DNA from: Narcine bancroftii
Lineage: Eukaryota
Reading direction: 5' to 3'
Assembly: GCF_036971445.1 (NCBI RefSeq)
Contig: NC_091473.1
Coordinates: forward strand, 206,460,001-206,524,000
DNA length: 64,000 nt
Part shown: positions 1,198-53,865 of the stretch, piece by piece
How positions within the stretch are numbered: the first letter of the stretch is position 1
Layout: every line of letters starts with the position of its first letter
The notes under the pieces: model-generated
Databases searched by the model: none
Seen by the model: the letters and a program-made list of their open reading frames with translations, nothing else
What the model was told of the DNA's origin: nothing
Program-made: the position numbers and the translations under genes

Positions 1198-2938
1198 CTA
1201 TTTTTGAATGGGGGCCTTAACCCAGGGAAGAGAACCATCTTCTGATAAATTAATTTCGTGCTGAAGTAAAATTCTAACTGGGTCTCCCAGGCCCCCTGGC
1301 TGCATGGTCTGCTGGACCATCGAAATCACTAGGCTGCGCAGACAGGGAATAAGACAGGGTAAAACAAGCAGGAGGAACAAAACACCCCCGATGACCCACA
1401 ATAAGGTGCGCCACCATGTTCCTCCAAACCATTTGTCCAACCAATTTAATTTTGCGAAAGGATGCCAGGTCTGGACTGGTACATGGGACAAAGTGCGAAT
1501 ATTATCAGCGATTTTGCGAACATTATCATCAATCTTTAAGCAGCAGTTAGTCAAATTAAGCTTTCCACATACACCCCCTTCTGTGGCCAGCAAATAGTCC
1601 AGGGCCAGACGGTTCTGATAGATGGCAGAGCGCATCTGACCCTGCTGGGATGCAAGCAATTGCAGGGCTAGAGCCGTTTGGTTTGTAACAATCTCAAGGA
1701 CCGCCTGCAAGCGAATAATGCGATTTAGCATATAAATAGGAGTACGGTAACCCCAGGATCCATCTTGGGCCCATGTAGCGGGACCATAATATTCAATTAT
1801 TCGTTCCGTAGGCCATTCATCTCACCACTGTCCCAAATGCACCGTGCTGGAGCGGGGTCGACGGTGTAATGCATCAAAAACCTTCACTCCCAATCTATGA
1901 CCGTGATCGTGGGGTAGGAGGAAAAATTCTGGGCGGATTATTCCCAGGAAACAAGTTCCACTCCACTGCAAGGGGAGGCGGGTATACGCTTCATCACCAC
2001 ACACCCAGAATAACCCATTTGGGGAGACTCCATATCCCCGTTCCCAAACCCTTTAAAGGGTGGGGTTTGATTGGTTTGGTCCTGTGATGGTGGAGCTGCT
2101 ACAATTCCAAAGCTGAAAACAGCTATTAGACAGGGGTAGGCAATCAGTCTTAAAACAGTGGATAGGAACCAAGTCAGGTGTTTAGGAAACCAAGTGAAAT
2201 TACCAGGCGAAATGCGGATCCATACAGCCTTGCAGGGACTTTTTCCTACCGGGTACTTGCCGGCTCGTGAGAGGCAATAAAAACCGGAGGGGACGTTGGA
2301 AAGAGACCAATTCTCCCTTGACCTTGTTCGGTTAGTGGTCCAAACCCGGGAGATCATGGTCCATGAGTCGAGGGACTCCCCCACCAAGGCCATTGCTCTG
2401 ACATCCGTGGACCTCCGCAGACCCAACAATTGGTTACATTAAAAGTTCCTGCAATTCTAGTTGCAAGATCAACAAAAAGGTTGTCTCCCCCAACTGCGTG
2501 GCCAAAACTTTCATGGCCATTTGGATGGACCTGAACCAAGTCCGGATGCCCCAAAGGGGCAGGCACTCCCGAGTGTGGAGTGGGACTCTCTACCGGAACA
2601 GTAGGCTGGTGTATGCAGAACCAGAGTCCATTAGGGCATGGTGGGCCTGACTCACCCTCCCAGGGCCAACCGTTAAGAGGGAAAGGAGTACTATTAGGAA
2701 TCTGTATATAATGACCCACACTACTTCCCTCATTCTCCGTACAAGGGGTATATGGATGTTGGGTGGTATTTTCTGTCCAGCATTTCTTAGGAATTGAGGT
2801 ATGGGAAATGAAACTACCCTCCTTTCTTTCCCAAGTGCGGTCCTGAAAAAGGTCTACTGTGTCTCTGCACTTCTTACACTTCAGACCTGACAAAGACATA
2901 GGCAAACCAAGAAAAACCAAAGCATATAACAATAACAT
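1198..2938 (-). pseudogene. env: Gamma-type envelope, ERV3/HERV-R-like, with frameshifts and one stop
   Basis: Signal peptide MLLLYALVFLG, SU CWVC motif, furin site [53 protein letters not shown]7CC ([10 protein letters not shown]), TM helix; spread over ORFs 2354-2944, 1938-2429, 1822-2004, 1198-1731. Confidence 0.93.
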
Positions 2939-2944
2939 TGTCAA

Positions 2945-5900: not shown

Positions 5901-6461
5901 GTCTCGTATTAGGGTCTCAATTACCGGCTGTAGACCCTTCCTCCCTTCCAAAGAAATAGGATACTGACGTTTCCTTACCGGCTGATGACCTGGTATTAAT
6001 GTGACATGTAAAGGTGGGATGTCCAGACCTCCTCGATTTCCCTTCTTATACCAGACTCTCTCGTCAATCTGCCGTTCATCCTCCTCCTTCAGAGCACAGA
6101 GGTGGACTCGCACTTCTCCGTCCACGGGGAGAGCACCCAAACCTAGGAGAGCCTGTAAATCTCTTCCTCAGAGGTTAAATCCGGCCGACGGTAACAACAA
6201 GAGGTCCTGTACCCCTTCTCTCCCTTCCAGCTTCACGGTCACTTGGGGATTTATCGATACCGTTCTGGGAGCCCCTTCTATCCCAGAAATTTTCAAATTG
6301 CTTTTTACAGGCTCGGTCCCAATTGGCACAGTTATTACACTACTTCGTTCCGCTCCCGTGTCCACCATAAACACCACCTCTTCTCCCTGGGGACCAATTT
6401 TCAGTTTTACCAAGGGTTCCCTCTTATACTTGGTCCCCAACACCCGGAACCCCTGACCCCC
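2945..6461 (-). pseudogene. pol: pro-pol (protease, RT, RNase H, integrase) of class I ERV
   Basis: Protease FMVDTGA; in-frame stop in NL*GRD; RT IDLKDAF and NVDD (mutated YVDD); RNaseH YIDGS/YTDS; frameshift near 4075; integrase HHCC and QIDF..SDRG..VERMN. Confidence 0.95.
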
Positions 6462-6464
6462 CTA
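6388..6464 (-). promoter_or_regulatory. gag amber stop readthrough signal with predicted H-type pseudoknot
   Basis: TAG GGGGGTCA G GGGTTCC...GGAACCC stem, plus TGGGGACCAA/TTGGTCCCCA second stem; pro is in frame with gag. Confidence 0.8.
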
Positions 6465-7951
6465 ATCTTCTTCCATGAGTTCAAGGGTCCGCACTTCCCT
6501 CTTATATCGGGGGCATTCCCTCTTGAAGTGTCCTTCTTCGTTACAGTAATAGCACTTAGCGGGTCTCCTGGGTCTCCCCTCTCTTGGATATCTTGGGTTG
6601 CTTAGAGGAGGGTTTTGTTTCCTTTCCCCTCTGGACTCGGCATTTATCTGTCGGATAGTCTGTACCATAATCTTCGCTGCCCTCTTTTGACCTTCCTCTT
6701 CCCTCTGCACATATACTCTTTGCGCCTTTTTCAACAGGTCGCTCAAGGGTTTTTCATTCCAGCCCTCCTCCTTTTTTAGTTTCTTCCTAATGTCCTGCCA
6801 CGATTTGGACACAAATTCAATTCGAATAAGCTGTTCACCCATTGGTGTACTAGGGTCCACACCCGCACGCTGTTGGACATTCTTTCTCACCCTCTCCAAG
6901 AAATCAGTAGGGGACTCATCTTTCCCCTGGTGGTTCCCAAATGCCTTGGCGAAATTGTGACCCTTTGGCACAGCCTCCCGTATTCCTTTAATCGTCCACT
7001 CTCTGTATTGTCTCATACTTGCCAATCCCTCGGGTGTTCGTTTGTCCCACCTGGGTTCATTCAGGGGATATTTTTGTTCATGGGGTCTGGGGTCCCCAGG
7101 TTGTTCACGTTCCCACATGAGGAGGGCAGCCTGTCGAATCATCTGCCTCTCCTGGGGTGAGAATAATGTTCCCATTATTGGGTGCATCTCTTCCCAGGTA
7201 TATGTGTTTGGTCCCAGGAACTGGTCGAACTGTTCGGCCAGTCCCATGGGATCTTCCAATAGACTTTTCATTTCCTTCTTAAATCCCCGCACCTCAGTAC
7301 TGGTTAGGGGAACGTTTACATATCCCGTTCCCCCTCCCGGTCCTCCCATAGGAACTTCCCTCAGGGGATTTAGGCTTACTGGAGCCTTCGATGGTCCTGG
7401 ACCAGTCTGGGATCTGGTCCAGGGTCGGTTTACCGGTGGAAGTTTAGGGTCCGACTCCCTTAATCATCCCTTCGTTCCCGGCCCCTTCCGGGACAATCAG
7501 ATTCATCACCTTTCCCCTCCAGCAGCGAGCTTCCCTCGGGTGCAGTGGGCACCGGGGGAACATAAGGAGGGGGGAGGTTGTCCAAAGGTTCCAACTTCTT
7601 TTCTCCCGCTACCCTCAATTTAAAACATTTTGTTAAGGATCCTGGCCAGGGAACCCAACAAAATGCATATGCCGACTCTTCTTGATTCACCTTTTGTCTC
7701 GAGTTTACATATATGTTTAATGCTTGTCTAACCCAATCCTCATCAGATCCAAATTTCGGCCACCAGAACGAGGAACCTTTGATAGGCTGTTTCGACCAAA
7801 GAAGACAATATTGAACCATCTTTTTCTTGTCTTTGTCTCGATATCGTTTACTATCCCAATTTTCAAACATTCTCCCCAAAGGGCTGTCAAGGGGAACCCC
7901 CGGGAAAAGTCCTGATCTTTCAGACGAGCCCTTAGATTTTGATCCTCCCAT
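6462..7951 (-). pseudogene. gag: gag of class I ERV (frameshift near 7460-7500)
   Basis: Myristoylation start MGGSKSK, PPPY late domain, MHR QGKDESPTDFLERV, single zinc knuckle CYYCNEEGHFKREC. Confidence 0.95.
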
Positions 7952-8408
7952 TTTCCCGCCTAGATCCGTTTATCGTTGCTGAGGACCCCCCCCCCCCGTT
8001 CGGGACCCTACTCCCTTTCGTCTCGGACGCCTCGTCGGAGGTACTATCCCTCCGCCGGTTCCCGCCGAGGTTTCCCTGGGGTCTATCCTAAGGTCCCACG
8101 ACAGGGTCCTCACGCCACGACAAAGGCTCTACACCTGATTTATCGTTTTATATTTTTTTAAAATTCCGTCATGACCCTTACCTGGGTGGTCTCGTCCGTC
8201 AATCCCCACACCACAATCGTAAGTAGTCACTTACCGGTGTCTTCCTGGGGATTGAACCGTCACCCCTCTCCTTTTCGTCTTGTCGTGTCACCTTGTCCAG
8301 ATACCACTCGCTCAAGCCGCCCGAGGCGACGAGCAAGGGACTAGGAGCCGCTGAACTCAGCGGGGTGCACCACCTCCGATGTCCCCCTTTCTCACCTCCT
8401 CCCACGGC

Positions 8409-14273: not shown

Positions 14274-17200
14274 AGGTGTGGGCAGGGCTCCCGTGTCTAC
14301 ACTATTGAGATATGGCGAATACATGGGGACCCACGGCCCTACATACCGTTAACAATCCATTGGGGTGGGGGTAATGACTGCCAATATTTGGCCTTGGTCG
14401 ATACTCGTGCAGAGCACTTGATGATTCCGGGTAACCCTGACCTCTGGATTGGACCGACATATCGAATAGAGAGGTTGGGAGGAGCGTTCACTCCGGGAAA
14501 GGAAATAAAAGTCCATGCCACGGTGGTTGATAGCCCTTCCCCTGTTTGGTTACATTCCCTGGTTGCTGCTACTGATGAGTGTATCCTGGGAATTAATATG
14601 TTGGCCGGTACGGCCCTTAATACTAGCCAAGGGGGATTTGCATTTGGAATTCGGACTATTGCAAAAAACTAGTAGAGCATCAGGTTAAGTGGGATCCTGT
14701 GATGGTGCCACCCCCCATGAAACCAGTGTGCATTCCACAATATTGTCTCCCTGGAGGGCAAGAAGAGATTACTGACACCTTCGATGCTTTGCACGAAGAA
14801 GGGGTAGTGAGGCCCGCAACGTCGCCCTTTAATAGCCCTGTTTGGCCGGTCCCCAAGCCGGACAGCTCCTGGAGAATGACAGTTGATTATCGCTTTTTGA
14901 ACAAACATGCCCCACCACTTGCTTCAGCAGTTCCGGACATTGTTACCCTTATTGAAAACATTGCTACTGGGAACTCAGGAACATGGTATGCTGTCATCGA
15001 TCTCGCTAACGCCTTCTTCAGTATTCTTATAGCTGAGGACTCTCAGGATCAGTTCACTTTACCTGGAAGGGGCGCCAGTGTACCTTCGCTCGCCTCCCTC
15101 AGGGTTATGTACACTGTCCCACTATTTGCCACAGCCTAATTGCCCGTGATCTTGAGACGGTGCCAGCATTGCCTTCCGTTTCGATTCACCATGATGTTGA
15201 TGATGTGATGATCCAAGGGGCCACAGAAGAAATGGCACAGGAATGATTGGAGAGTGTCCAAGATACCCTGATGCAAAGAGTGTGGGCCTTTAATCCCACT
15301 AAGGTACAGGGCCCGTCCCAGACAGTTATTTTCCATGGAATTCAGTGGCATGCTGAAGAAAAAGTTGTTCCCGATAAAGTTCGCAATAAAATCGCAGACT
15401 TGGCCACTCCTACCAACAAAAATGAGACCCAGCATTTCCTGGGGTTATTGGGATACTGGCGACGCCATGTAACACACTTGGCATGCTTTTACGTCCTCTG
15501 TATAAGGTTACTCGAAAGAAAACAGACTTTGCATGGGTAACAATCAGGAAAGGGCGTTCCAGTCCAGCAAGCAGGCTATTCTTCAGGCCCTGCCCATTTC
15601 TCCCCACATCCCAGATACTCCCTACGAACTACAGGTCTCCGTTACTGATGATGTGGCCTGCTGGTGCCTCTGGCATAAACAAGAGGGTCGCCGATTCCCG
15701 CTGGGATTCTTGTCACATACCATGCCTGAGGCTGCCACTCGTTATTCTGTTTTTGAACAACAGTTACTAGTCTGTTTCTGGGCCATGCTGGAGACTGAAA
15801 GAATGATGGGTGATGCTGAAGTTCAATTGCGACCTGCACTTCCAATAATGAATTGGGTTCTGGCTAATGATGCTAATCTAAAGATCGGGCGAGCTCAGCT
15901 GTCTTCTATTGTTAAATGAAAGTGGTATATTCAGAATAGTGCAACCAGAGGGCCTGAAGGGGTGGGCCGCATACATAAACAGGTGGTTGATCTTCCGTCT
16001 CATCATGAGGACGTTGAACCTGCCTTGCCCCCTCCTTTACTCCCATCACCAGTTCAGTGGGGTAAACCATATGATTTGCTCACTCCAGCAGAACAAGAGG
16101 ATGCCTGGTTTACTGATGGTAGCAGCCGGTGGGTGCAAGGAAAGCAAAAGTGGAAAGCAGTGGCTTACCATCCCAAGTCAGGAACTCACTTATCAGGGGA
16201 GGGAGAATGGTGGCTCCAGTCAGTATGCTGAGTTGAAGGCAGTCTCTTTCCCACTAGATCCCCATGATCACCCTCTTTGCCTGTCTACTGATTCCTGGGC
16301 TGTGGCTAATGGACTTGTGGTATGGATGCCTGATTGGCAAAATAACGACTGGATGATACATGACCGCCCAGTGTGGGGCAAAAGGTTGTGGCAGCTGTTG
16401 TGGGTTGCTTCCCACCACCGTGAGATAAATGTGTATCATGTCTACCCAAATGACCACTCTGTTCATATCCCAATCGAGTCAGGGGGACGGTATCAGCACG
16501 GCTGATATTGGCAACCTGATCTACTACTGCATTATGTTGATGCCCATACCAATGTGGCGACTAACATGGCACAACATAATGCAGTAGCAGATCAGCTTGC
16601 CATTATCAGCCACGCTGATAACATCCCCTGGATCGATGGGCACATGAACAGAGTGGTCATTTGGGGGAGAAGGGATCAGCTATGTGGGCCAGAACACATG
16701 CTTTACCCGTCCATCAGGGTGATGTTCACATGGTCATGCGTACAGGCCCAGAATGTCAACTTGTGAAGTCCCATGTCATTCCTCCTGGTCCGCATGGCCG
16801 AATACAACAGGGTGCTCGCCCAGCTGCGGTTTGGCAAATTGATTACATAGGCACTATCCCAGACTATATGCGTAAACGTTACGTCTTAGTAGTGGTTGAT
16901 ATCTTTTCAGGCCTGGTTTTTGCTTTTCCCACCAAGACGGCTGACCCAGCTAGCAATATCCAAGGACAAAACCATTTAATTTCTCGTTATGATGTTCCAG
17001 ACGAGATTCAGCCTGATAATGGCTCGCACTTCTCCAGAAAGGCAATCTGTGATTGGGCAAATGACAACGGTATCTTATGGGTTCACCATATTCCTTATTA
17101 CCCGCAGGCTGCTGGGTTAGTTGAACGAATGAATGGCTTACTGAAGGAACAAATTCGTTTGTTACATCACTGGGAACCCTGAAGGGGTGGTGTCATGTGC

Positions 17201-20710: not shown

Positions 20711-22535
20711 CGCAAGATGGCGTTGGAAGAAGACGTGTGCAAACACCTCTACCTAGCTGATCAATTAATGCCCGAATTATAAAGACATTCAAAACTTTTT
20801 CAGAGTGGCTTAAACTTTGTTTACAGCAATAATGAAGAAAACAAGAGGCCAACTAGTGAAGAAATTAATTTTAAAACGTGCAGAAAGTGCAGAAGAACTG
20901 AGTCCTACCTTCCAGAAAGATCCACGGCAATCGATTGGAGAGGCCACGAAACTGCAGAGGTCTCTGAAGATCAAACTGAGAGTTACTCCGGCGACTTCTT
21001 TGCCTTCAGGGACACATAATGGCGCCGGTGTGGTGTGTCGCTGTATGGAGTGGACGGGAGTGCAAGCACTAGACCCGATGCGCGCCCGTCGAGGCCATTG
21101 AGTGTGAAAGCGAGCGCCCTGACCGAGAACGCGAACACGAACGAATGTACGTTGCCGGCGATGTTGCCGTGACGAGCGCAGCGTCTGAGGACGTTCGCCT
21201 CTGCACCTTGGGTGAACTGGGCATGCGTGAAGAGTCATGCATGCACACCACTCCTGATCGCGCCATGGCTGTGGGCGGGATCATCCAAGAAGAAAACGCT
21301 GAAATTCTGGAAGAAGAGGGGGAAACAATTATTATGGATGTATCAAGAATCATGGTAGGTAGGATACAAAGGTTTAAATCTATTCCTTTACAGACATTTA
21401 AAATGTCTGCTGCTGGAGTTGAACCTGTTAATCCTTTACCAGAAGATTTATTTTGAGAATGGATAATATGGCTGTTCATGTGAGTCAAGGTTTTTCAGAA
21501 GTTTCAGAAGTTAAAACCCAATTTGCTGATTTGCGAGGGGAAATGAAAAACATATTTGAAAAGGTTTCTGCCGTTTAAATAGAGTTAAACATTTGAGAGC
21601 TGTGGATACGGTACGAGATAAGTTTTAAAAAAAAAGATTGAGTAGGCTTTTATTAACTGTAATGATAAGGTGGAGAGATATACTGAATGGATGTACTATG
21701 TTGAATATTCCATTACTGGCTGGTATATTCAGATTAAATAATTCCTGATAAAAATCGATTTGTTGGAAAATCAGAGTTGGCCTAATAATGTTAAGACAGT
21801 AGGTCTACCAGAGATATTGAAGGAATGGATCCTCTAAAGATTTTCCGGGAATGAATCCCAAAAACGTTGCTTGAAGAGGCTTTCCGCGAGGGATTGGAAA
21901 TAAATCGAACACATAGAGTGATAAGGAAAAAAAAACTTTCCCGGTTCAATCTGACGGGCAGTTCTTATTCGATGTCTGTAGTATCACGATTGAGAGTTGA
22001 TTTTATGTCTTGTGGTTAAAAAAAAAACACTAATCGAAATCAAAGCCCTTTGATGATTCAACGCAATAGTTTTTTTAGGCCAATTTGAGTCAAGATGTTA
22101 TTAGGAGATACAAAGAATTTAATCCTGCGAAAGCTGTTCTGTGGGAGAAAAGGGTATAGATTTGCCTTACCATTCTTAGCTGTTTCGACGGTGTTTTATG
22201 GAAATTTTCAGGCTCAGTTTGTTTCAAAATTAGAGAGATGCTTTAACCTTTGACAATTCTTTGCCAGATAATGAGGCAAGTTATGAGTTGCACAAGCAGT
22301 CGAATAGGTATTTGAAGAAGAATGGGAATGGAAACAGAAAGAATGCACGAAAAACTCATCGATTCATTGCGATGGAAGGAGAGGATCAAGATGATTGTGA
22401 AATAGCATCTGTGGGCTAAATGTCATTATTTTATATATTTTCGTCTGTGGAGAAAGGTTGTGTGGTGTGGTGGACGACTCTGAAATGTTCGAAGTCGTTT
22501 TGACCACGCCCAGTCTAGAGAGGGTGTATCACTAA
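20711..22535 (+). mobile_element. L1-clade 5' UTR and decayed ORF1
   Basis: Begins near CAAGATGGCG (YY1-type core seen at L1 5' ends); ORF1 remnants LENQSWPNNVKTVGLPEILKE and LEINRTHR. Confidence 0.7.
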
Positions 22536-25194
22536 GGTGGTTTCCCATCTGTCCTATCGAGAATTTAAAGATTCACTAATGTATCTGGAGGTGATGGACC
22601 AGGTTAGGGAAATATGGACCCTCCCAGAATTGTTCACAATTGCGATTGTTACGAGGATCTTAAAGATGGGGAAGTATCCGTTTTTATATTCTTCTTATAG
22701 ACCAATTACCATGCTGAATAATTATTATAAGATTCTTTCCAAGCCCCTGGCAAACAGATTTACGTTGCATTTACCGAAATCTATACACAAAGACCAGGAA
22801 GATTTTGTGCAGGGGAGACAAACGGTGGATAATATTGGCAGACATTTTCCTTTAATACATCTGGTACATATCAGAAATGAGAAGGGATTGGCCGTTTCTT
22901 TGGATGCAGAGAAGGCGTTTGATAGATTGGAGTGGGAATTCTTATTTAAAGTGCTTAACAAGGTGGGGTTATGGTCAATTTTTCTAAATTGGATTAGGAC
23001 GCTCTATCATGCAGCCATAGAAAATGATTATGACCAATGGACAAATCTCTTCAGCTTTCCCACTTACTAGATCTAGAAGACAAGGGTTCCCGCTGTCACC
23101 AGCTCTCTTTGTGCTAGTGATGGAACCACTGGGTGAGGCCATTCGCCAGGATTCAGATATTACAATTTATCGAGTGGGCCAGGAGGAGCACAAAATAAAT
23201 TTATTTGCTGATGACATGCTGGTGCACCTGACAGATTCTGCGACTTCTCTGCTTTAACTGCACGTGTTATTGGAGGCCTATGGGAAACTTTCCATGTATA
23301 AAATCAATTGGGGAAAATGTGAGGTGATGTCACTCACCAAGAAGGATTATATCCATCTTAAAGAAAATTGTAATTTAAAGTGGCCGAAGGGGGGGATCAG
23401 ATACCTATGAGTTAATTTTGAAGGAAACCTGAAAAATTTACACATGTTAAATTACGCCCACGTGATGGAGAGAGTCGTGGAGGATTTAAATAGGCCGATG
23501 TCCCTGCGCATAACATTAGTGGGAAGGATTAACTGTATTAAAATGAATGTGCTGCCAAGACTCCAGTATATTTTCCAGCCAATTCCTGTGTCATTACCCC
23601 ATGGTTTCTTCAAACAGCTGATACACAAGGCCATAATATTTCTCTGGAATGGTAAAGTGGCAAGCGTCTGTATGGTAAAATTTATATGGAAATTCAGTGT
23701 AGGCGGATTGAGTATGCCAGACTTTAAAACATATTACTCGGCAGCCCATTTGAGATACATCACTTCCAGAGTGGAGGTGTATTATCCTGGGCACAAAGTG
23801 ACCTGCACCTGCACGGCAAGAGGATGGCAGAGGTCGTTATTTATAACGTGACGCGAAATTGCTGTCATGAAAGAAGGGCAGCCCCACATAATAATAAAAA
23901 AAAACAAGTGACTAATATCTGGCACCAAATTAACCAATATTTGAACATCAAAGTGGGACTGTCCCCAAAAACGCCCCTGACTCCTAATAAATTAATGTCA
24001 TTTATGGTAAGACCCTGGACACCTGGCACCGTAATGGCGTAGAGGACTGTTAAGAGCATGGACAACTAATGTTATTTCAACAACTCAAAAATAAATAAGA
24101 TTCGTCAAATAAGATATTCCACTGCTACGTTCTTTTTTACCGGACATACTGGGTCCAGGTATGGCCCTACATCGGTGCAGTTCCATAGAGACTATGATTT
24201 GAATGGGAGAGTGAAAAGAAATTCATTTCTGAAATGTATTTCCTGCTCCAGTCGGATGGACCCAAACTGGACCTCCATAGATCGAGAGAAAGATGGGAGA
24301 TGGACTTGGGTGTTGTAATTGATGAGGAATGCTGGTCGATTTTTTTTCGGGACAGCATGACCACGATCATCAATGCAAGGTACAGGGTGGTGCAATCTAA
24401 TTTGTTGCACCAGCTGTACCTAACGTCGCAGAATATAAACAGGTCAAAACCTGAACACTCAGACCAATGATTCAGATGTGGCATGGTGACTGGAACGTTC
24501 ATGCATACATCCTGCTCATGTACAAATGTGTGACCCTTTTGGGAAGAACTAGGCCACGTCCTAGAGAAAATCACAGGTAAACATTTCCCGCAGGTCCCAG
24601 GGTTGTTCCTGTTGATACATCATGCACATAAGACTTACAATAAAGCTGTCCAAATTTCAAGTACAATTTGTGTTAATCGCATTAGCAGTGACCATGAAAT
24701 GCCTTGTGGAAACATGGAAGTCCTACTCTAGTCTTATTATGGAATGATGGAACCATTAAATGCAGTGCTGCGTTCCCCTGGAGAATATAACATGACCTGA
24801 GAAACAGGATCTGGCAGCAGTACATGTGCTACATGGGCACTTGGCGGTGATTGGTTTCCCCGCTTTATGCTGTAGTTTCCTCTCCCTCGCACTGATCCTG
24901 ATTAAAGGAAGGTGACGAATGAATATCTGTCTGGATGCCGCCCATTGAGTTGCGACAATCCCTGCCCCTTGTTTATTATTTATTTTCCTAGTGTTAAAGT
25001 TGTGTTGTTGTTGGTTGACGTTTGAATGATTGGTCTTGCTTTATACGTTGGGGAGGGGGCTGGTAGAGACACGGACTTATATAAGTCATAAAGAGAATGA
25101 ATATATGTATATTGGAATGTGAACTGCCATTTTATATGGCTGTACAACTTTGTGTGAAAATATAAATGCATATTTTTAGTTATAGGAGTGAAAT

Positions 25195-29500: not shown

Positions 29501-30082
29501 GCGTAGAACCTTTCTGAAATTCAAGGACGGAGTTATAGAATGCTCAGTCGCTGCAGGCTGAAAAACATATTGTCATTAATAGGACGGAATAAGCTAAAGC
29601 CCACGGCTAGGAGTAGAATAGAACAGGGGAAACAAGAGAAAAGGTATGCGGGTTACTAGTGGAAATGAAAATGCAAAAGATGGTAATTGATGTGAAATTA
29701 ATGACGTAATTATGAAGGTGGTGTTTTGAAAGCATAAGATTGCTTATAGGTAAGATGATATATAAAAGATAGTTAAAAAGTTGTAACTTCTCAGAGGTTA
29801 GCGTAACCTCCGAAAAAAGTGATGAAAACGTGCTGTGCCAGAGGATTCCATCAAATGCATGCTGCAAGGATGGAGACATCATGAAAACGATGGCAAGTGT
29901 GCATCAGAAAAAAAAAAATAGTCTTGCATATTTTATTTTTAGCATCATGTTTACAAGGTGAAACGACAACTCAGAATTTTTTTTAAAAAGTAAAAGGATG
30001 AGGAGCAGTGGAGAGAGAGAGAAAGGGAAAGAGAAATCAAGGTACAGTGGCTTTCGCACAATGCCATATGCAATGCGTGAGA

Positions 30083-30157
30083 TGTGTGTGAGATAGAGAG
30101 ATGTTTTGTGTGTGTGTGTGTGCGTGTGTCTGTGTGTGTGAGAGAGAGAGAGAGAGT
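30083..30157. repeat. (GT)n/(GA)n microsatellite
   Basis: Visible dinucleotide runs. Confidence 0.9.
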
Positions 30158-30492
30158 GGGGTGTTTACGTTTTCACTTTATGCCAGAGTTTCTTCCATGT
30201 ATTCCATTTTCCCATACCTTACTCACATACTTCCTGATAAATTTGGGCATTCCGTTAATTGTCAGTTATGAATTGGCCCTTGCGTGCCAATGAAATATGC
30301 GGCGGCAGAATTTAATGGCGGCAGAGCAAAAGTGGTATTCTGGTAGAAATAGTATAACCTGGTGGTTTGTGCTTGGTTCAGATGAAATTGCTGAAATTAC
30401 CTGTTTACGTTCCATAACTTTTAATGACCATATCAGTATGCCTCCACACCGTGGTCAGTATTATTTAATGTCATCATGAAAAGAAACATTGA

Positions 30493-30531
30493 TATTATTG
30501 TACAGCCTTATGACTGCTGTGCATGACTGTG
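30493..30531 (-). promoter_or_regulatory. 23-RSS of supporting TCRdelta V
   Basis: Heptamer CACAGTC, 23-nt spacer, nonamer ACAATAATA. Confidence 0.85.
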
Positions 30532-30843
30532 TGGCGCGAGGTACCATCGCACAGTAAAACACAGCCGAGTCGTTCAATTGCGGTTTTGAGATAACCAGTG
30601 ATATCATTTTCTCCGAAGGACTATTAACGGCAAACATTCTTCCTGTGGGAACTTCCTCCTTACGCTCCTGTCTTGATGTTTCAATCTGAAGTAGGTATGT
30701 CAGAGATTGTCCTGGAGAGCCTCTGAACCAGAAAACCGTGTTGTGACAGTACCCTGAATATTTACACTTTAAATTGACGCTGTAACGTGCTTGAGACGAT
30801 TGTACAACCGGATATTGTAGCACGTCGATTTTCTTTTCGATAT
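30532..30843 (-). CDS. Leaderless supporting TCRdelta V segment of NAR-TCR
   Basis: Acceptor CCTACAG at 30845-30844; open exon (D)IEKKIDVLQYP..LKCKYSGYCHNTVFWFR..DSAVFYCAM; extra CDR1 Cys; no leader exon found; phase matches the J donor. Confidence 0.88.
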
Positions 30844-32281
30844 CTGTAGGATAAACGTGGACTAAAATCATTTAATGTGTATCGGAGGAAGATCACAACT
30901 ATTTCCCATTAGTGCCTTCGGGAAAATGGCTTTTTTTTTGTTCATGTGTGCTTGATCATACTCGATACGATGCAAATATTTGAATGTCTAATTCTTATTT
31001 CCAGAGAGTGGGAAATGAGGGGAGGAATTGAATTGGATTGTATATGTGCATTGTCTTCCAGAATATTGTATAACACATCCAGATAAGTATATTCATACTC
31101 AAGCAGAATACTCTAATGTGTATTTCTACAAATCTCACCCATCGGTTCCGCATACATGTCGTTTAATTAAATGACAGAAGTGATATTCGCTTTTATTTTT
31201 AGGAGCAGGTTACACTTTATGGTTAGTTTCTAAGTTAAATTTAGATTTAATATTTACACATAGAGCAAAGTAACAGGCAACAATCCACGCAGGGATGGAT
31301 TGCGCAGGATTTGACTCCTCTTCCCGATCATTTGCTCAAGAACAGAGATGTGCTCGTCGCTACACTAACTGTCCCGTCCCGTACGTCATCTGTATCGCCA
31401 AAGTCTTTGGAAAACATGTTTCTCTAATATTCTAAATGCAATCGAAGTAAAAAATGAAATACAAAATATCAAATTTTCACTTGATTCATAAATATGTCAT
31501 GTCAAAAAGGCAGGTGGGATAAATGAAAATTACAATGCAAATAATATGGATATCCAAATCCACCAGAGGTTCTAACAAACCTTCCATTAAATATTTCAAT
31601 GTTAGGCAAAAAGAAGTAGAAATGGCTCAGGTTTCAAGCTCTTCCCATATTCGAGCAGAAGCCTCAGGACCAACGCCTCTAAATTCAAGAAGAGTTTCTT
31701 TCTAACATCTATCATGTCCTTGAATTTCATATCGTTACATTGTTACACTACTCAGAGAATCCCTGCACTATCGATAACTTTCGTTGAATATTGAATAGTT
31801 ATCATCTCTCATTTAAAAATAAAATTATTGTCTCCTATTGATAATCTGAGTACAGTATTATGGGATTGTTTTGTCTTTATTATTTTAAAGTACCCGTTCA
31901 GCTGCAGCAAGGAAGAATCGTGATACATATATACACGGTGGAATGGATATGAACGTTGACCAATAATCGTTAACAAATCCTCAATTGTATTCTAAGTGAT
32001 CAAAACTAATGAAATACAAGCTAGGGCATCCTAATAACTAATTTTACCTATAGCCCCTCAATCCCTTTCAGTACAATTCTGTGCAGTTGAAGAAATGCCT
32101 CACCCTCAGAGATGTACAATCTTATTTTATATTTCCGATTGTATGCAACCCGACTACTTGAGTTTCCAATCGTGCACTAAACAAGTGCACTAAACAAGTG
32201 ACAAGTCTCTCACACCTGTGGTCTGAGAAATAAGTTATGGTGATCATTAACAATGAACATAACGATGTTCAGGAGACTTAC

Positions 32282-32345
32282 CAGATGTCACTGTTACCGC
32301 CGTACCTGATCCATCAACAAATTGTGCCCACTCTCCCCAGGCATA
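32282..32345 (-). CDS. NAR-TCR J segment (YAWGEWAQFVDGSGTAVTVTS)
   Basis: GxGT..TV J motif, phase-1 donor G|GTAAGT at 32281, upstream RSS. Confidence 0.85.
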
Positions 32346-32374
32346 CACATCATTTGAAATTCGTGAAAGAAACC
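32346..32374 (-). promoter_or_regulatory. 12-type RSS of J (13-nt spacer)
   Basis: Read away from the J: CACATCA, 13 nt, AAAGAAACC. Confidence 0.65.
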
Positions 32375-32688
32375 TGCTGTGCCTTTATGGATATCTATTC
32401 AAACAGATTTCAATCTGGTGCCCGTTTCAAGATATTGGCACATAATTTTGTCTCCACCGGGACATAGTGAAACACGAACATTCATTCAAAAATGGGAATT
32501 TTTATTTCTATTCTTGACGAGACCGATACATCAGTTCAACAAGATTTCTCGTCATATTCATGATGTGAACTGCAAAATACTCATCGCAATATAAAAACAA
32601 CTGAGGCTGAGTGGCAGAAAGATCGCACACTGACTGAATCGGTGGATTTCCTGCAAGTGGGACTGTTTGTTGCGATTGATAACACTGA

Positions 32689-32727
32689 AATTATCCGCTT
32701 CTCGCAATGACTAAATACAGCACCGTG
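32689..32727 (-). promoter_or_regulatory. RSS of NAR-TCR V; good heptamer, degenerate nonamer
   Basis: CACGGTG at 32727-32721; at 22-23 nt spacing only GCGGATAAT/CGGATAATT. Confidence 0.55.
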
Positions 32728-33017
32728 TGTGTTCCACTCCCTGTACTGAGCCTTACAGTAATAGCTGGCGCTGTCGTCTGTTGTCAAATGTAAAAGTTGG
32801 ATCGTAAATGTATTTTCTGTCTCATTAGTGGACACGACAGTTCGTCCTACAGCGAACAAGACATCGACGTTTGCATTGATTTTCCTGAAGAGATGCCAAC
32901 GTTCCAATTTATATCCAACCGTATTATCATCGGAGAAGCGACAGGTGATACTGACAGACTGACACTCCATCCGGGATACTACTAGTGGGGTTTGAAGAAC
33001 CCGTTGACCGATAATGC
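32728..33017 (-). CDS. NAR-TCR (IgNAR-like) V exon
   Basis: QRVLQTP..ECQSVSITC..DDSASYYCKAQY; 61 residues between canonical Cys versus 70-71 in the other two Vs (CDR2 deletion); extra FR1 Cys; acceptor TTTCAG at 33019-33018. Confidence 0.88.
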
Positions 33018-33177
33018 CTGAAATTTAAGAATTAAAGGGATGGTTTATTCAGAGAATTTAATTACAAAGCTTGGAATAATACGATGCTTAAACCACGAAA
33101 CTACTCATGATTCGGAAAGATATCCGATGATTTTGAGAATAATAGAAAAGGTATTTTTGAGATTGAGTCGCACTCAC

Positions 33178-33256
33178 AGTATAAAGGGGAAAACAAAGAG
33201 AAAGCAAGGATTGGAATCAGTCTGCTGCAGTGCGTAGATCGGCAATTCAATGGCAT
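33178..33256 (-). CDS. Leader exon of NAR-TCR V
   Basis: MPLNCRSTHCSRLIPILAFSLFSPLY + phase-1 donor GTGAGT, splices in frame to the V exon; exact start codon uncertain. Confidence 0.7.
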
Positions 33257-33918
33257 GTTGCATACTTCAGGTCTAGTCAATGATGTGACACTCGCGCTTG
33301 AATCCCTTGGAGGCACCTTAGCATGCCCTCTACGTAGTCTTCCGTTGTTTACCGAACGCCCTCGTGTTTCGTGAGTCTTCGGCGATGAGTTATACGAGTA
33401 TGAATCTACTTTTAACCGAGACAAGGCTTTGTTTTAAATCCGCAAACTCTCTCCGTCGCGTGAGCCCAGTCCACAATGCTGCTGGCAAACTGGAAATGCG
33501 CCTTCGTCGGCAGAGTCTGCCGTCTCATCATGCTGTGGTAGAGATATGTGTAGAATATTTTGTTCCAACTGTATATCCACTGTCCTCTTGAGGACATCTG
33601 AACACTAACTATGGTTGTATCAGGAATTCTACACGATTCACTCTTCCTTCCGTTAATAATCAATTCACTTATAGATAAATTGAGAATCAAGAATTTGGTC
33701 CGATCTGCACCAATCTGAAAGGTGTCCACAATTAATCAAGCTGTTTAAAACGATTTAACCCTTCAGATTCATAATATAGAAAATCCGTTGTAATTAGAGG
33801 ATTGGTTCTTTTACTGATATTTCCGGATATTGCATATTATGAGGAAATCTTCCGTGTAAAATTATAGCACAGAATTAATAATTTGACAAGTTAGTATGAC
33901 AGCGTGGCAATTCTGAGC

Positions 33919-37348: not shown

Positions 37349-40267
37349 TCATTCACGATGCCGTAAGCATTCAGTGTTTAAACAGACTAAATCAGCCTTT
37401 CCCACAATAGCTACCCACCGAATGTTACCCTGGGCAGGTGTCACTATTTCCCCTTTTGCAGGAGGGCCACTACCTGGTGGTGCCATTCATACCTGTTGTC
37501 CGGCATTCTCTAGTTCGGGAATGGGGGACAATGATTGTTTTTCCTCTGGAATAGTCTGTAGTTAAGAAATGTGAAGAAGTCGGTGGAAAGGTGAACCTCC
37601 TTTTAAAGGTCGATTATTTAAATTGTCGACTGCTTGCTGAAGCACATGACACCACACCTTCAGGTTTCCCAGTGGTGTTAACAAACGAATTTGTTCCTTC
37701 AGTAAGCCATTCATTCGTTCAACTAACCCAGAAGCCTGCGGGTAATAAGGAATATGGTGAACCCATAAGATACCGTTGTCATTTGCCCAATCACAGATTG
37801 CCTTCCCGGAGAAGTGCAAGCCATTATCAGACTGAATTTCCTCTGGAACATCATAATGAGAAATTAAATGATTTAATCCTTGGAAAGTACTAGCTTGGTC
37901 AGCCGTCTAGGTGAGAAAATCAAAAATCAGGCCCGAAAAGGTGTCAACAATTACTAGGACGTAACGATTACCCATACAGTCTGGCATAGGGCCTATGTAA
38001 TCAATTTGCCAAAGCGCAGCTGGGTGAGCACCCCGTTTTTTTCGGCCATGAGGACCAGGAGGAACGACATAGGACTTCACAAGTTGATATTCTGGGCATG
38101 TACGCACGACCATGCGGACATCATCCTGATGGATGGGTAAAGCATGTGTATGGGCCCACATAGCTGATCTCTTCTCCCCCAAATGACCACTCTGTTTATG
38201 TGCCCATCGAGCCAGGGGGACGGTAACAGCACGGGTGATAGTGGCAAGCTGATCTGCAACTGCATTATGTTGTGCCATGTTAGTCGCCACATTAGTATGG
38301 GCATCAACGTGATACACGATTATCTCACAGTGGTGGGAAGCATCCCGCAACAGCTGCCACAACGGTTTGCCCCACACTGGGCTGTAATGTATCATCCAGT
38401 CATTCTTTTGCCAATCAGGCATCCATACCACAGGTCCATTAGACACAGTCCAGGAATCAGTAAGCAGGCGAAGTGAGTGATCATTGGTGAAGGGGGTAAG
38501 GGAGGGGGCAAGGCAGGTTCTACGTCCTCATGATGAGACGGAAGATCAGCCACCTGTTCGTGTATGCGCCCCACCCCTTCAGGCCCTCTGGTTGCACGAC
38601 TCTGAATATACCACTTCCATTTAACCATAGAAGATTGCTGCGCCCGTCCGATCTTTAGATTAGCATCATTAGCCAGAACCCAATTCATTAGTGGAAGTGC
38701 AGGTCGCAATTGATCATCTGCATCACCTGTCATTTTTTCAGTCTCCAGCAGGGCCAAGTAACCGGCTAGTAACTGTTGTTCAAAAGGAGAATAACAAGTG
38801 GCAGCCTCAGGCATGTTACGTGACCAGAATCCCAGCGGATTCGGCGACCCTCTTGTTTCTGCCAGAGGCTCCAGCAGGCCACATCATCAGTAACGGAGAC
38901 CTGTATGTTCGTAGGGGGTATCTGGGATGAGGGGAGCAACGGGCAGGGGCTGAAGAATAGCCTGCTTGGTGGACTGCAATGCCCTTTCCTGATCGTTACC
39001 CCATACAAAGTCTGTTTTATTTCGGGTAACCTTATACAGAGGACGTAAAAGCAATGCCAAGTGTGGAATATGGCGTCGCCAGAATCCCAATAACCCCAGG
39101 AAACGCTGGGTCTCATTTTTGTTGGTAGGAGTGGCCAAGTCTGCGATTTTATTGAGAACTTCATAGGCAACAACTTTTTCTCCAGCATGCCACTGAATTC
39201 CAAGGAAAATAACTGTCTGGGACGGGCCCTGTACCTTGGCGGGGTTTATGGCCCACCCACTTTGCATTAGGGTATCTTGAACACTCTCCTAACCTTCTTG
39301 TGCCATCTCTTCTGTGGCCCCTTGGATCATCACAGCATCAATATAATGGTGATTCGAGAGGGAAGGCAATACTGGCACCGTCTCCAGATCACGGGCAATT
39401 AGGCTGTGGCAAATAGTGGGAGAGTGTACATAAACCTGAGGGAGACGAGCGAAGGTATACTGGCGCCCCTTCCAGGTAAAGCGAACTGATCCTGAGAGTC
39501 CTCAGCTATAAGAATACTGAAGAAGGCGTTAGCAAGATCAGTCACACCATACCATGTTCCTGAGTTCCCAGTAGCAATGTTTTCGATAAGGGTAACAATG
39601 TCCGTAACTGCTAAACCAAGTGGTGGGGCAGGTTACTTCAAAAAGCGATAATCAACTGTCATTCTCCAGGAGCCGTCCGGCTTCTGGACTGGCCAAACAG
39701 GGCTCTTAAAGGGCGATGTTGCGGGCCTCACTACCCCTTCTTCTTGCAAAGAGTCAATGGTGGCACTAATCTCTTCTCGCCCTCCTGGGAGGCGATATTG
39801 TGGAATGCGCACTGGTTTCATGGGGGGTGGCACCATCACAGGATCCCACTTAGCCTGACCCACTACTATTTTTTTTTTTGTAATAGTCCGAATTCCAAAT
39901 GCAAATCCCCCTTGTGTAGTATTAAGGGCCGTACCGGCCAACATATTAATACCCAGGATACACTCGTCAGTAGTAGCCACCAGGGCATGTAACCAGATAG
40001 GGGAAGGGCTATCACCCACTGTGGCAAGGACGTTTATTTCCTTTGCCAGGGTGACCGCTCCTCCTAACGCCTCTATTCAAAAGGTCAGTCCAGTCCAGAG
40101 GTCGGGGTTACCCAGAATCACCGAGTGCTCCGCACCAGTATCGACCAAGCGAAATATTGGCGGTCATTACCCCCAGCCCAATGGATTGTTAATGGTATGT
40201 AGGGCCGTGGGTCCCCGTGTATCCGCCGTATCTCAATGGTGTAGACACGTGAGCCCTGCCCACAACT
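37349..40267 (-). pseudogene. pol: pro-pol of class III ERV copy 2
   Basis: VDTGAE, SPVWPVQKPDGSWRMTVDYR, YIDA (mutated YIDD), WQIDYIGP, VERMNGLLK. Confidence 0.93.
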
Positions 40268-46088: not shown

Positions 46089-49000
46089 TTCTGTGTTTTA
46101 TCCGGGGTTCAGATCAGACTTTTATACTCGCCATGCTACCTCCATTTTCCCATTTAGACACATCATGACCTGCATAACAAAAGCGGGTTTCTCAAGCGTG
46201 GGTACCTTTCTTGCATAGGAAGAATGAATCACTTCTTCCTCGCATGCTATCCCTGACTGTTGGTTGTGCAGCAAAACCAGGGCCATTTTGGGGTCCATGG
46301 ACTATAAGCTGCCCTTGTCATCCGTACGCCGATTCGTTGGTTGGAGCCAGAGCCGCTGTGCAGTCTGATGTCCTTTACATATGCTCGCTGCGCGGAGAGT
46401 CGGCTTGCCACGACATGATCCCCCAGAATCGGTCGTTGTCTTTAGTGCTGGGAGACAAAGTCACTGCAGGCTTCGATGGTCTGTTTAACCAGTGTGCTGT
46501 TGGTGTATCAACCGGGCGAGCTGGATCCAAGTGTTCCTGTTCTTGGTTAAGACCTCTGTCTTGCCTACGACAACCAGTTCGAACATTGCCTCACTGTTAC
46601 AGATAACCTGGAACAGACCCTCGTATGAAATCTGCAGCAGTGGGCGATATGAACCGCTGCAAATGAAAACATACTCACAGTCCTGTTAGTCTTTTGGTAT
46701 GCTGGTCCTCGCATGTCCGTGCCTGGAAAGTGGAATCAGGGCCCGGTTGCCATCTTATTCCCTCAGTTTGCGGAGGAAAGCTGTTCTCGGTCTGGAGACG
46801 GTACAAATCCCCCCGGGACCACCAGTGGAGCTCCGTAAATGAGTACAGATGAAGATGTGTTGAATTCCTCCTTGGGTGTCATATGGATACCGAATAGTGC
46901 TCATGCTAGCTCATCCTCCCCGTGAGGTCCTTGAAGTCTGGTCATGAGTGCAGCCTTGAGGTGCCTGTGAAAGCGTTCCATCAACCAATTTGACTGTGGA
47001 TTATGTGGTGCAGCTAGGGGGCCCACAGGCTGATGAGGTCGGACCATAGGGTGGAAGTGAAATGGACCCCTCTGTCGGATGTGATGTAGGGTGATATTCC
47101 ATACCGTGCCACCCAGGACGATATGAGGGCCCTCGTAGATGAGGATTAGGACGCATCTGCTAGAGGGACAGCTTTTGGCAACCTGGTGAAGCGGACAACC
47201 ATCGTGAACAGTAGCATAAGCCCTGGGATACTGCTAAATGTCCTATCATGTTCAAGTTGATGTGGTCGAACATTCGTTCTGTGGGATCGAAGCGTGGAGG
47301 TGGTGTCTTGGTATGCCACTATACTTTGGTTGTTTGACTCTGCATGCATGCCTTTGCCCACCTGGTGACCTGTTTCTGCAATCCATGCCACCACATATTT
47401 GCTGGACACCAGCCTGACTGTGGTCCTCATGGACGAATGAGCCAGTCTGCAGATGGAATTGAAAACCTGACATCTCCAAGCGCCGGGGTGAGAGGTCTAA
47501 CCTGCTTGTTGGACACGTTGCACAGGAGGGTGCTGTTACCCGTGACGACTGGGATATCCTTGAGCTGTAGTCTCGATATGGCAGTCCTGTATTGGGGCAT
47601 CTCCTTGTCGCTCTGCTGCACTTCTGCTCCCCTGAATAGTGCATGGATATTTTGTCAGGACAGTGCGAGGCCACGATATTTTCCTTTAAAGAGTCGTGCC
47701 TTAAATCTGTGGTGTACTCTGACATGTAAGACAGGTGTCACTGTGGTGGGATGACGAGGGGTCCAAGATTATAGCCAAGTCGAAAGGTTGGGGCTTGTGA
47801 TTTGCGAAGGCCATGAAAGACCTGCCCTCTAAGAAGTACCCAAACTGGTGGATGGCTAGGTATCTTGCCAGTAACTCTCTGTCGAAATCGCTGTTCTTCA
47901 TTTTCGGAGGCTGCAGGTAATTGCTGAAGGAAGTCAGCGGCTGCCAACTTCCTTCAATATGCTGCTCCAGAACTCCACCCATCGCAATTCCTGAGGCATC
48001 CACAATCAGGGACGTTGGAGCATTTTCCCTGGGGTGTGCCAGATGTTTGGCGTCCTTTGCCTTCACTAAAGCCTCTGCTGACTCCTATCTCCATGTGATG
48101 TCTTTCACCTTGCTTGCCATGTGCACAAACAAGCGAGGCATGATCTAGGCAGCGGAGGGGATGAACCTGTGGTAGAATTTGATCATCCCCAAGAAGTCAT
48201 GTAGTCCTTTGGAGGTGCTCAATCAAAGTGATTTATAGATGGCCTCGACTCTGCTTACACTGGTTACCTGTGGCCCATGCACTCGTTGGCCCCCAATCCG
48301 AAATTTAATTTGGCTAGGTTGATCGAAATGGCGAAGTCGCTCGGTTGGGTATAGAGGTTGAAGAGGTTCTTCATGTGTTCTTGGTCGCCACAATGATTTC
48401 ATTCAGGTACACGAAGGTGCCATCTATGTCTTAGTCCACTCCATACATTAGTTGCTGGAAGTTCTATGTGGCATTCTTCAGCCTGAACAGCATTTGAAGG
48501 ACATCGAACAGGACAAAGAGGGTGATGATGGTGGTCTTGGGGATTATCATCAAGGTGCACCAGGATCTATTCATATTCCCGCACGAGATCCACGTTAGAA
48601 AAGATCTTTTCCCTGTGCAGGTTATTGGCAAAGTCTTGGATGTGCACCTCACAGTATCGATCCCATGTTGTGGACTCATTGAGCTGGCAGTAGTTGCCAC
48701 ATGGTGTTCAGCCCCCTGTTGCTTTGGGCACCATATTCAGGGGAGAAGCCTATGTGCTTCCTGACCGAAGTTCAATGCCAAGCTCCTTCAGATTATTGAA
48801 TTCTCCTATCGCCAGCTGGAGCTTCTGTGAGGGAAGGCATCTTGCCCTTGCATTGAGCAGAGTGCACTGGGTCAGGATGTGGTGCTGCGCTCCATTCCGG
48901 GGCATCACCGTGATGAATTTGGGGGGGGGGGGTGGGGGGAGCAGTGCAAGGAACTTAACCAGGACCTTGGCCTATTTGTCATTTGATCGCTGCATGGAGT

Positions 49001-53364: not shown

Positions 53365-53403
53365 AGTTTCTGTATGAGTGCGTGATCGGTTTGCCTCATT
53401 GTG
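53365..53403 (-). promoter_or_regulatory. 23-RSS of TCR V
   Basis: CACAATG, 23 nt, ACAGAAACT. Confidence 0.92.
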
Positions 53404-53710
53404 CGTCGCAATGCGCAGTAATAACTGGCAGAATCGTTGAGCACCAGTCCTGCGATATGCAAACTGATGAATTTAGTCATAGTTTGGAGTTCAGCGGTGA
53501 AACGAAGTGAGGCGAATTCTGCTTTTCCTTCAAAATTATCGCTGTCCTTCCACAGAATATACTGAAGCAGTGTGCCTGGTTGTTGACGATACCAGAATAA
53601 GCTACAGCTATCCGAGTTGATATTATAGGCACACTTTAAGGTCACGGATTCTCCTTCAGCCTTTAATTCTGACGACATCAAGTGTGTGACTGATTCTCCA
53701 TCGCAGTGGT
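53404..53710 (-). CDS. TCR alpha/delta V exon, apparently functional
   Basis: ESVT..EGESVTLKCAY..LFWYRQQPG..LQYIL..DSASYYCALR; acceptor TTTGCAG; 23-RSS. Confidence 0.93.
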
Positions 53711-53819
53711 CTGCAAAAGAAATTAAAGAGGAAACTATCAAACAGGCGAGATTAGAATTTTCGGATCATAAAATGTTTCAAAGGAGTGGGAAAATGTAAT
53801 ATGTTTTCTGCATAATTAC

Positions 53820-53865
53820 CCCTCAGATGTGCTCCCCACACAATGCAAATGATGAAGATTCGCAT
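53820..53865 (-). CDS. Leader exon of TCR V
   Basis: MRIFIICIVWGAHLR + phase-1 donor GTAATT, 109-nt intron, in frame with V exon. Confidence 0.88.

Follow-up and report, generated by a model that had tools for sequence, protein, structure and literature searches.

Does the genome of Narcine bancroftii hold a working cassette for a T-cell receptor (TCR) of the new antigen receptor type (NAR-TCR) and, if it does, how are the pieces of that cassette brought together into one chain? NAR-TCR is the textbook case of an antibody-type single domain on a T-cell receptor. The window analyzed here is the whole 64,000-nucleotide stretch of contig NC_091473.1 from position 206,460,001 to 206,524,000 of the forward strand (RefSeq assembly GCF_036971445.1), and positions are numbered from its first letter unless given as contig coordinates (C11). 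A sequence-only reading of this window had proposed a NAR-TCR cassette made of a leader, a short variable (V) exon with a recombination signal sequence (RSS), a joining (J) segment with a phase-1 donor, a 1.4-kb intron, and a second V exon with an RSS of its own. Direct reading of the sequence finds every one of these parts in place, all of them on the minus strand, and the architecture is borne out at the RNA level, with a leader-bearing NAR-like V and its own J spliced onto a leaderless Vδ that carries a 23-RSS. The proposal was thus right on the parts, while being silent on their strand, on a missing nonamer, and on the absence of a diversity (D) segment. We consider it very probable that the locus is an expressed δ-chain cassette of the NAR-TCR type, in which a leader and a short V resembling that of the immunoglobulin new antigen receptor (IgNAR), joined in DNA to its own J, are spliced onto a leaderless Vδ predicted to join the D, J, and constant (C) segments of TCR δ by inversion.

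The evidence that carries this assignment comes from contigs of three coded runs from one study (X1, X2, and X3), none of which is recorded as RNA; as the contigs lack the introns, they are taken as spliced RNA. A 767-nt contig (X1 record 1) runs through 33275-33177, 33016-32728, 32345-32282, and 30843-30532 plus 3 further letters with no differing letters, X2 record 7 shows the V1-J and J-V2 joints again, and X3 record 17 the leader splice again (V1 and V2 denote the first and second V exon). Each of the three joints is therefore found in two of the three runs, namely the leader joint 33177 to 33016, which skips 160 nt bounded by GT..AG (X1, X3), the V1-J joint 32728 to 32345, which skips 382 bp (X1, X2), and the J-to-V2 joint 32282 to 30843, which skips 1438 nt bounded by GT..AG (X1, X2). 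Compared with the split genomic copy, 0 of 764 transcript letters differ. J and V2 lack contigs in X3, and the V1-J interval is covered by no contig in any run.

These joints fix the anatomy of the cassette on the minus strand. The leader exon, together with a 5′ untranslated region (UTR) of at least 19 nt, occupies 33177..33275, the X1 contig starting at 33275; its ATG lies at 33256, the peptide that follows is hydrophobic in translation, and the exon ends at 33177 in phase 1 with the donor GTGAGT. The leader intron (33017..33176, 160 nt, acceptor TTTCAG) leads to V1, a short NAR-type V-set exon at 32728..33016 which contigs of X1, X2, and X3 cover without differences, and which ends in the germline stem of the third complementarity-determining region (CDR3), ..YYCKAQYREWNT. 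The J of the NAR domain (32282..32345) has 64 coding nt that read ..FVDGSGTAVTVTS plus 1 nt, with ..VTVTS and that one base at the end, before the donor GTAAGT at 32281; this 64-nt piece is bounded by the two joints in the X1 and X2 contigs and is the sole J-like match with a donor in the 164 kb around the cassette. The J-V2 intron (30844..32281) contains two stretches, 31675-31724 and 31883-31918, that align at 90-95% with numerous unrelated contigs continuing elsewhere and are probably dispersed repeats. V2, the leaderless supporting Vδ exon, lies at 30532..30843 behind the acceptor CCTACAG (30845-30844) and ends in ..FYCAMVPRA plus 1 nt. Its 23-RSS (30493..30531) follows directly as CACAGTC / 23 nt / ACAATAATA, the RSS scan giving 6/7 for the heptamer and 6/9 for the nonamer. 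A CA/GA-rich, microsatellite-like stretch at 29900-30170, just past this signal, yields long repetitive false open reading frames.

Two of the three joints have intron borders, and the V1-J joint does not. In the 382 bp that are missing from the expressed form (32346..32727), the first two letters, CA, belong to the V heptamer and the last two, TG, to the J heptamer, and this piece is therefore no spliceosomal intron. The joint runs exactly from heptamer to heptamer, with nothing lost or added, no D, and no letter that fits both sides; it carries the borders of a RAG coding joint, untrimmed and without additions. The signals on its two sides are weak. On the V1 side (32689..32727), the heptamer CACGGTG at 32727-32721 (6/7) is followed by 23 nt and no recognizable nonamer, the best candidates in the RSS scan reaching 3/9 at spacers of 11-13 and 22-24 nt, so that the earlier description of this element as an RSS stands for the heptamer and falls for the nonamer, and the term is valid for the heptamer alone. 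On the J side (32346..32374), the nonamer GGTTTCTTT at 32374-32366 (7/9) is separated by a 13-nt spacer from the heptamer TGATGTG at 32352-32346. The same scan detected no RSS-flanked D (nonamer/heptamer-D-heptamer/nonamer) in the 382-bp interval, where the sole paired signals, at ~32494-32430, are ordered wrongly for a D. The V1-J joint thus has no D and one exact, recurrent junction, both unlike the published accounts of NAR-TCR. Contigs drop rare variants, and this junction is accordingly the recurrent and only assembled one, which is a narrower statement than its being the sole one made.

Once joined and spliced, the message has an open frame of 248 codons from ATG 33256, with the V-J joint in frame, and the X1 and X2 contigs also contain the in-frame J-to-V2 splice that had been predicted from the letters (..VTVTS-D-IEKK..). 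That the cassette is instead a transcribed relic, the message of which yields no receptor chain, appears to us very improbable. There is an ATG at 33263, out of frame and 7 nt upstream of the leader ATG, which lies within the transcribed 5′ UTR and in the spliced message starts a 58-codon frame overlapping the leader; together with the weak signals of V1 and J, and with the presence of a single copy, this is what a relic could call upon. Against it, the 248-codon frame stays open across three joints, including the in-frame V-J joint, and the 3′ end of V1 is conserved with P0001, the sole relative that protein searches with V1 return (59-60% identity). Moreover, the X1 and X2 contigs end 3 letters beyond the V2 coding end (30532) and none reads into the V2 RSS, as would be the case for a V2 that has been rearranged.

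For the identity of the first domain, several lines of comparison point to the V of IgNAR (VNAR). Both V exons pass the Pfam V-set model (cut-off 26), with 27.0 bits for V1 and 49.7 bits for V2. V1 reads ..MECQSVSITC.., with a cysteine in the a-b loop 7 residues N-terminal of the canonical one, and P0001 has the same Cys; this residue and the extra Cys in CDR1 of V2 (YSGYCHN), both singled out in the sequence-only reading, match the hallmarks of NAR-TcR given in the part of the published description available here (PMC1845163). The top three ESM Atlas clusters for V1 are named V-NAR (scores 0.95, 0.94, and 0.93). In the PDB profile search, VNAR or new-antigen-receptor domains account for 10 of 60 rows among the matches listed and are the best single-domain chains (46.2-35.7 bits), and in the five multi-domain chains with printed alignments no single domain rises above 20.1 bits against V1. 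The VNARs equal V1 in length to within 1-2 residues, versus light-chain V domains that are 3-8 residues longer. The canonical Cys-Cys span is 62 in V1, 8-10 residues less than the 70-72 found for 26 TCR V genes of the genome, while V2 has 71; this count omits loci L018 and L029, for which the pattern has no match, and takes the V1 span from the canonical Cys, as the first pattern match, from the a-b loop Cys, gave 69.

V1 is a single-copy sequence, with 1 match at E<=1e-3 among 13 candidates in the genome; at E<=10 there are three further matches, all at chance level, and the one that was inspected is a V of the pIgR/CD300 kind. The 10-kb stretches upstream of 13 sampled clusters of C1-set exons contain three heavy-chain (VH) and three light-chain-like (VL) V genes with Cys spans of 71-74, and no short V of the IgNAR type. 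P0001 maps back in the genome to V1 alone, and the two are paired with a support of 99 in a quick tree of 35 rows. In this tree they stand with the three VH and three VL genes, opposite the 26 TCR V genes and V2, with an SH-aLRT of 92 for the split; this tree has long branches and holds genes of this genome plus P0001, with no named NAR-TcR or IgNAR reference. The 32.7-kb V therefore stands apart from the conventional TCR V genes of the genome, in keeping with the earlier assignment, and its best single-domain PDB and Atlas matches are VNARs. As to the tryptophan of the core, the V1 motif reads ..RWHLFRK, and of the 7 printed alignments 6 set W40 on the canonical Trp, the PDB profile alignment placing F43 there. 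The canonical Trp is thus, as judged from these alignments, most likely retained in V1.

The same comparisons also bear on whether V1 belongs to the NAR lineage at all, since it could be an Ig-light-chain-like V that was captured independently to give a convergent two-V δ chain, which would work like NAR-TCR or the mammalian TCR-mu without being a member. This we regard as improbable. The first 45 residues of V1 do align without gaps to human V-lambda-2 chains in 5 of 5 printed alignments, with W40 on the Trp, but these matches are weak (E 0.09-0.24), and over the full length the best single-domain PDB matches are VNARs, of a length within 1-2 residues, with V-NAR clusters as the top three in the Atlas. 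A light-chain origin would also be compatible with the absence of a D, with P0001 as the sole relative in protein searches, and with a tree that places V1 among the VH and VL genes of the genome when no NAR reference is present. However, the V of IgNAR is itself described, in the portion of the source at hand, as more closely related to the V of IgL and of TCR than to VH (PMC4279169), and the a-b loop Cys, the CDR1 Cys, and a J donor that leads into a leaderless second V are the hallmarks of NAR-TcR as far as the published description is available to us.

We return to the reading of V1 as a NAR-type domain, and to how its joint with J arises. The last 12 residues of V1 are identical to those of P0001 at 10 of 12 positions, versus 60% over the whole alignment. 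In P0001 the protein continues through a heptamer, CACTGTG, at the codon matching the V1 heptamer, and its ..SQKP.., 22-23 nt after the heptamer, would by its codons require the consensus letter at 6 or more of the 9 nonamer positions; with a protein that reads through both heptamer and nonamer, the split, RSS-bearing state is therefore common to a second species. Conservation of the CDR3 stem and the readthrough in P0001 would both fit a germline-encoded CDR3 under constraint.

The joint might, on the other hand, not be somatic, in that the RNA donors could carry a germline-joined VJ allele or copy that is missing from the assembly, the window then representing the other allele; the joined form would stem from one RAG event in the germ line. 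Germline-joined Ig genes have arisen repeatedly in the loci of cartilaginous fish, and this possibility, which we judge to be unlikely though far from negligible, gains further from the identical, letter-perfect joint in two samples, from the lack of any other junction in any contig, and from a V1 RSS without a nonamer, whereas the P0001 peptide implies a nonamer of at least 6/9. It loses by the fact that the assembly has one V1 copy, and a split one, to which the transcripts are equal at all 764 letters and in which V1 and J are intact and mutually in frame. In addition, heterozygosity for a joined and a split form at one locus would be rare a priori.

A letter-perfect V-to-J join without a D likely leaves the NAR domain nearly invariant. 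We tentatively put forward, at somewhat short of an even chance, that this is a single NAR-TCR with a germline-encoded distal NAR domain, that is, D-less, with one canonical exact V-J joint and a CDR3 stem conserved across species, and that it serves as an invariant, innate-like single-domain binder on a somatically diverse Vδ.

The second domain is of another kind. Its genome matches at E<=1e-3 (29 of 95 candidates) all lie in the V array of the TCR alpha/delta locus at C11 205.19-206.74 Mb, mostly on the plus strand, and its nearest relatives are genes of that array, with a best identity of 37-40%; in the tree it falls on the TCR V side. The nearest of all (40% identity) is a conventional TCR alpha/delta-type V at 53365-53865 (minus), 20 kb away and on the same strand as the cassette, with a leader (53865-53820), a V exon (53710-53404), and a 23-RSS reading CACAATG/23/ACAGAAACT. 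CDR1 of V2 carries the extra Cys (..KYSGYCHN..). No leader-like exon is visible by eye in the 400 nt upstream of V2, and in the contigs that cover it V2 is entered only from J, with no dedicated leader in use, in agreement with the earlier suggestion that this 30.5-kb V has none. On the grounds of its array matches, tree position, CDR1 Cys, and lack of a leader, V2 is, as far as sequence can tell, a TCR-like Vδ.

To what does this Vδ connect? Neither a C exon nor a further J occurs in the 64-kb window or the 100 kb around it (164 kb in total), and the genome-wide list of C1-set exons has none in the window, within 60 kb to its left, or within 40 kb to its right. The cassette lies inside the TCR alpha/delta locus, for which D, J, and Cδ are found at 206.975-207.009 Mb of the same contig, past the V array. 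A genome-wide C1-set search places the Cδ exon at C11 207,004,651-207,005,022 (plus), with, 3′ of it, a transmembrane (TM) exon carrying the alpha/delta-type motif ..LTVMGLRILFFK..NVLMT... A pair of Jδ segments, one of which reads ..YEKLIFGSGTKLIVEP, is located 10 kb upstream of the Cδ exon, and a Dδ lies 19 kb upstream of the Jδ pair, with a 12-RSS on its 5′ side (perfect heptamer) and a 23-RSS on its 3′ side. X1 and X2 both show Jδ 1 spliced to the Cδ exon; the sequence preceding Jδ varies from contig to contig and includes the D motif, from which it follows that the junctions are diverse. The D-J-C unit is thus the expressed TCR δ unit. PDB and Atlas searches with the Cδ exon gave lambda-like C1-set matches, which are not diagnostic, and its identity follows from the TM motif, Jδ, Dδ, and the J-C splice. 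An unjoined contig of X1 extends into Jδ 1, and in X3 a 4297-nt contig spans the whole Jδ region unspliced (L048:3300-4800 = C11:206993300-206994800); these contigs are germline or precursor transcripts of the δ locus. A broken second Cδ-like exon (L044, C11:206786520-206786792, minus), with 34% identity to the expressed exon, one TGA, and one TAG, sits in the interval that separates the cassette from the functional D-J-C unit, and its direction is opposite to that of the unit.

The V2 RSS is 484 kb from D and 514 kb from C, and the D-J-C unit is transcribed in the direction opposite to the cassette. The 23-RSS of V2 pairs by type with the 12-RSS of Dδ, and each of the two signals sits at lower coordinates than its coding end, so that joining would invert the interval; joining of V2 to Dδ would thus proceed by an inversion of ~484 kb. 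Transcripts running from V1 and V2 into Cδ, which the sequence-only reading led one to expect, did not materialize, as no contig in X1-X3 links V2 to D-J-Cδ.

Taken together, we envisage a path in which RAG would join V1 to J in T-cell precursors, the leader is spliced to V1 and the J donor to the V2 acceptor (both splices being seen in RNA), and the V2 23-RSS would join Dδ, inverting ~484 kb. The product would be a three-domain δ chain, in which a diverse Vδ bears a NAR domain encoded almost entirely in the germ line, and the two extra cysteines, in the a-b loop of V1 and in CDR1 of V2, may bridge these domains.

A number of points weigh against this account. The last step is inferred, since the V2-to-D-J-C link appears in none of the contigs. 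A V1 RSS without a nonamer and a J heptamer of 4/7 are weak RAG substrates, and the loss of the V1 nonamer in the present genome weakens the case for efficient somatic joining; an exact joint is also unusual among somatic coding joints, and junctional diversity may exist among rare variants that contigs hide. In the message, the out-of-frame AUG (33263) precedes the leader AUG. The tree holds no named NAR-TcR or IgNAR sequence, and the protein searches give one relative of V1, P0001. The absence of Trp that is reported for NAR-TcRV most likely does not extend to V1 (W40), and this lowers our confidence in orthology between V1 and the published NAR-TcR V lineage, leaving the shared mechanism unaffected. 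Finally, structure was uninformative: an AlphaFold model that covers only the V1 exon and lacks the J strand has a pLDDT of 68.8 with residues 1-16 disordered, and a Foldseek search of this model against the PDB gave no match at E<=1e-3, only generic V domains.

Beyond the cassette, the window contains a retrovirus-like element with long open frames at 1201-7969 (minus), made up of an env TM-like part (1201-1821), an integrase (3148-4182), a reverse transcriptase (RT) with RNase H (4008-6167, 720 aa open), a protease (6171-6461), and gag p30 with a zinc knuckle (6465-7463), all on the minus strand. Fragments of retroelement pol (RT, RNase H, integrase) are scattered among the V genes at 14627-17179 (plus), 22519-23067 (plus), 37565-38527 (minus), and 47704-48084 (minus). 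Further along the contig, 0.5-1.2 Mb past Cδ (C11 207.5-208.2 Mb; L057, L059), there are clusters of C1-set exons with VH genes upstream. Their presence on the Cδ contig agrees with the linkage of heavy-chain (IgH) clusters to TCR alpha/delta in cartilaginous fish that is reported in the available part of a published account (PMC12227049).

If the outer domain is indeed D-less, with one exact joint and a stem conserved in a second species, the picture of two diverse V domains would change for at least one lineage. An invariant outer domain would point to a fixed ligand, not a repertoire, and would provide one defined protein to express for ligand fishing; the ligand of NAR-TCR is described as unknown in the part of the literature account consulted (PMC7615758). 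An invariant distal domain on a diverse Vδ would, moreover, turn the arrangement of marsupial TCR-mu around. The locus is also a case, supported by RNA, of assembly in two steps, the second of which would have to invert about half a megabase.

The closest comparison is with the NAR-TcR of sharks. As far as the published descriptions are available to us, the NAR-TcRV of nurse shark and elephant shark has an a-b loop Cys and lacks the canonical Trp of the WYRK motif, while the supporting δ V genes have a CDR1 Cys and no leader (PMC1845163), and NAR-TcR is formed by separate VDJ rearrangements that give two diverse V domains (PMC1845163; PMC5931798). With this system, to the extent of those descriptions, the Narcine cassette shares an N-terminal IgNAR-type V with its own leader and a-b loop Cys, a J of its own with a donor that feeds a leaderless Vδ with a CDR1 Cys, a separate RSS on the second V, and a position within the TCR alpha/delta locus. 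Set against the same partial accounts, it differs in having no D and V-J assembly only, in showing one exact V-J joint in RNA with no junctional diversity assembled, and in most likely retaining the canonical Trp in V1. It is also unlike the shark system in its one genomic copy and in its inverted placement upstream of D-J-Cδ, 484 kb away. We found no description of a D-less, invariant, or germline-joined NAR-TCR V in the literature covered, a search that did not reach Criscitiello et al. 2006, Ott 2021, or supplements.

In IgNAR, according to the portion of the source at hand, three D segments come after the V, and the J that follows them is spliced to C exons (PMC4279169). V1 has its best sequence and feature matches in the VNAR of this molecule, as a short domain without the C″ region, but the cassette has no D and its J is spliced to another V, not to Ig C exons. 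The TCR-mu of marsupials and monotremes, in the parts of two accounts that were available, is a chain of three domains, two of them V domains, and one of these two shows little or no somatic diversity; platypus makes one V without a D, and marsupials have one germline-joined V (PMC3457774; PMC7615758). The three-domain, two-V plan with one V of little diversity is thus shared, although, on the same accounts, TCR-mu arose independently from VH-like genes. The invariant V of TCR-mu is there the membrane-proximal, supporting one, whereas in Narcine it is the distal NAR domain that appears to be germline-encoded and the proximal Vδ that is diverse.

In terms of assembly, inverted V segments that join by inversion are known, for example human TRDV3. 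With these the cassette has in common a V transcribed opposite to D-J-C and RSSs on the same side of the coding ends. Unlike a V of the TRDV3 type, the inverted Narcine V is upstream of D-J-C, ~484 kb off, and brings along an entire second V-J unit. The architecture is, therefore, that of the known NAR-TCR, and it is the D-less V-J unit, the exact joint, the retained Trp, the single copy, and the inverted placement that set this cassette apart.

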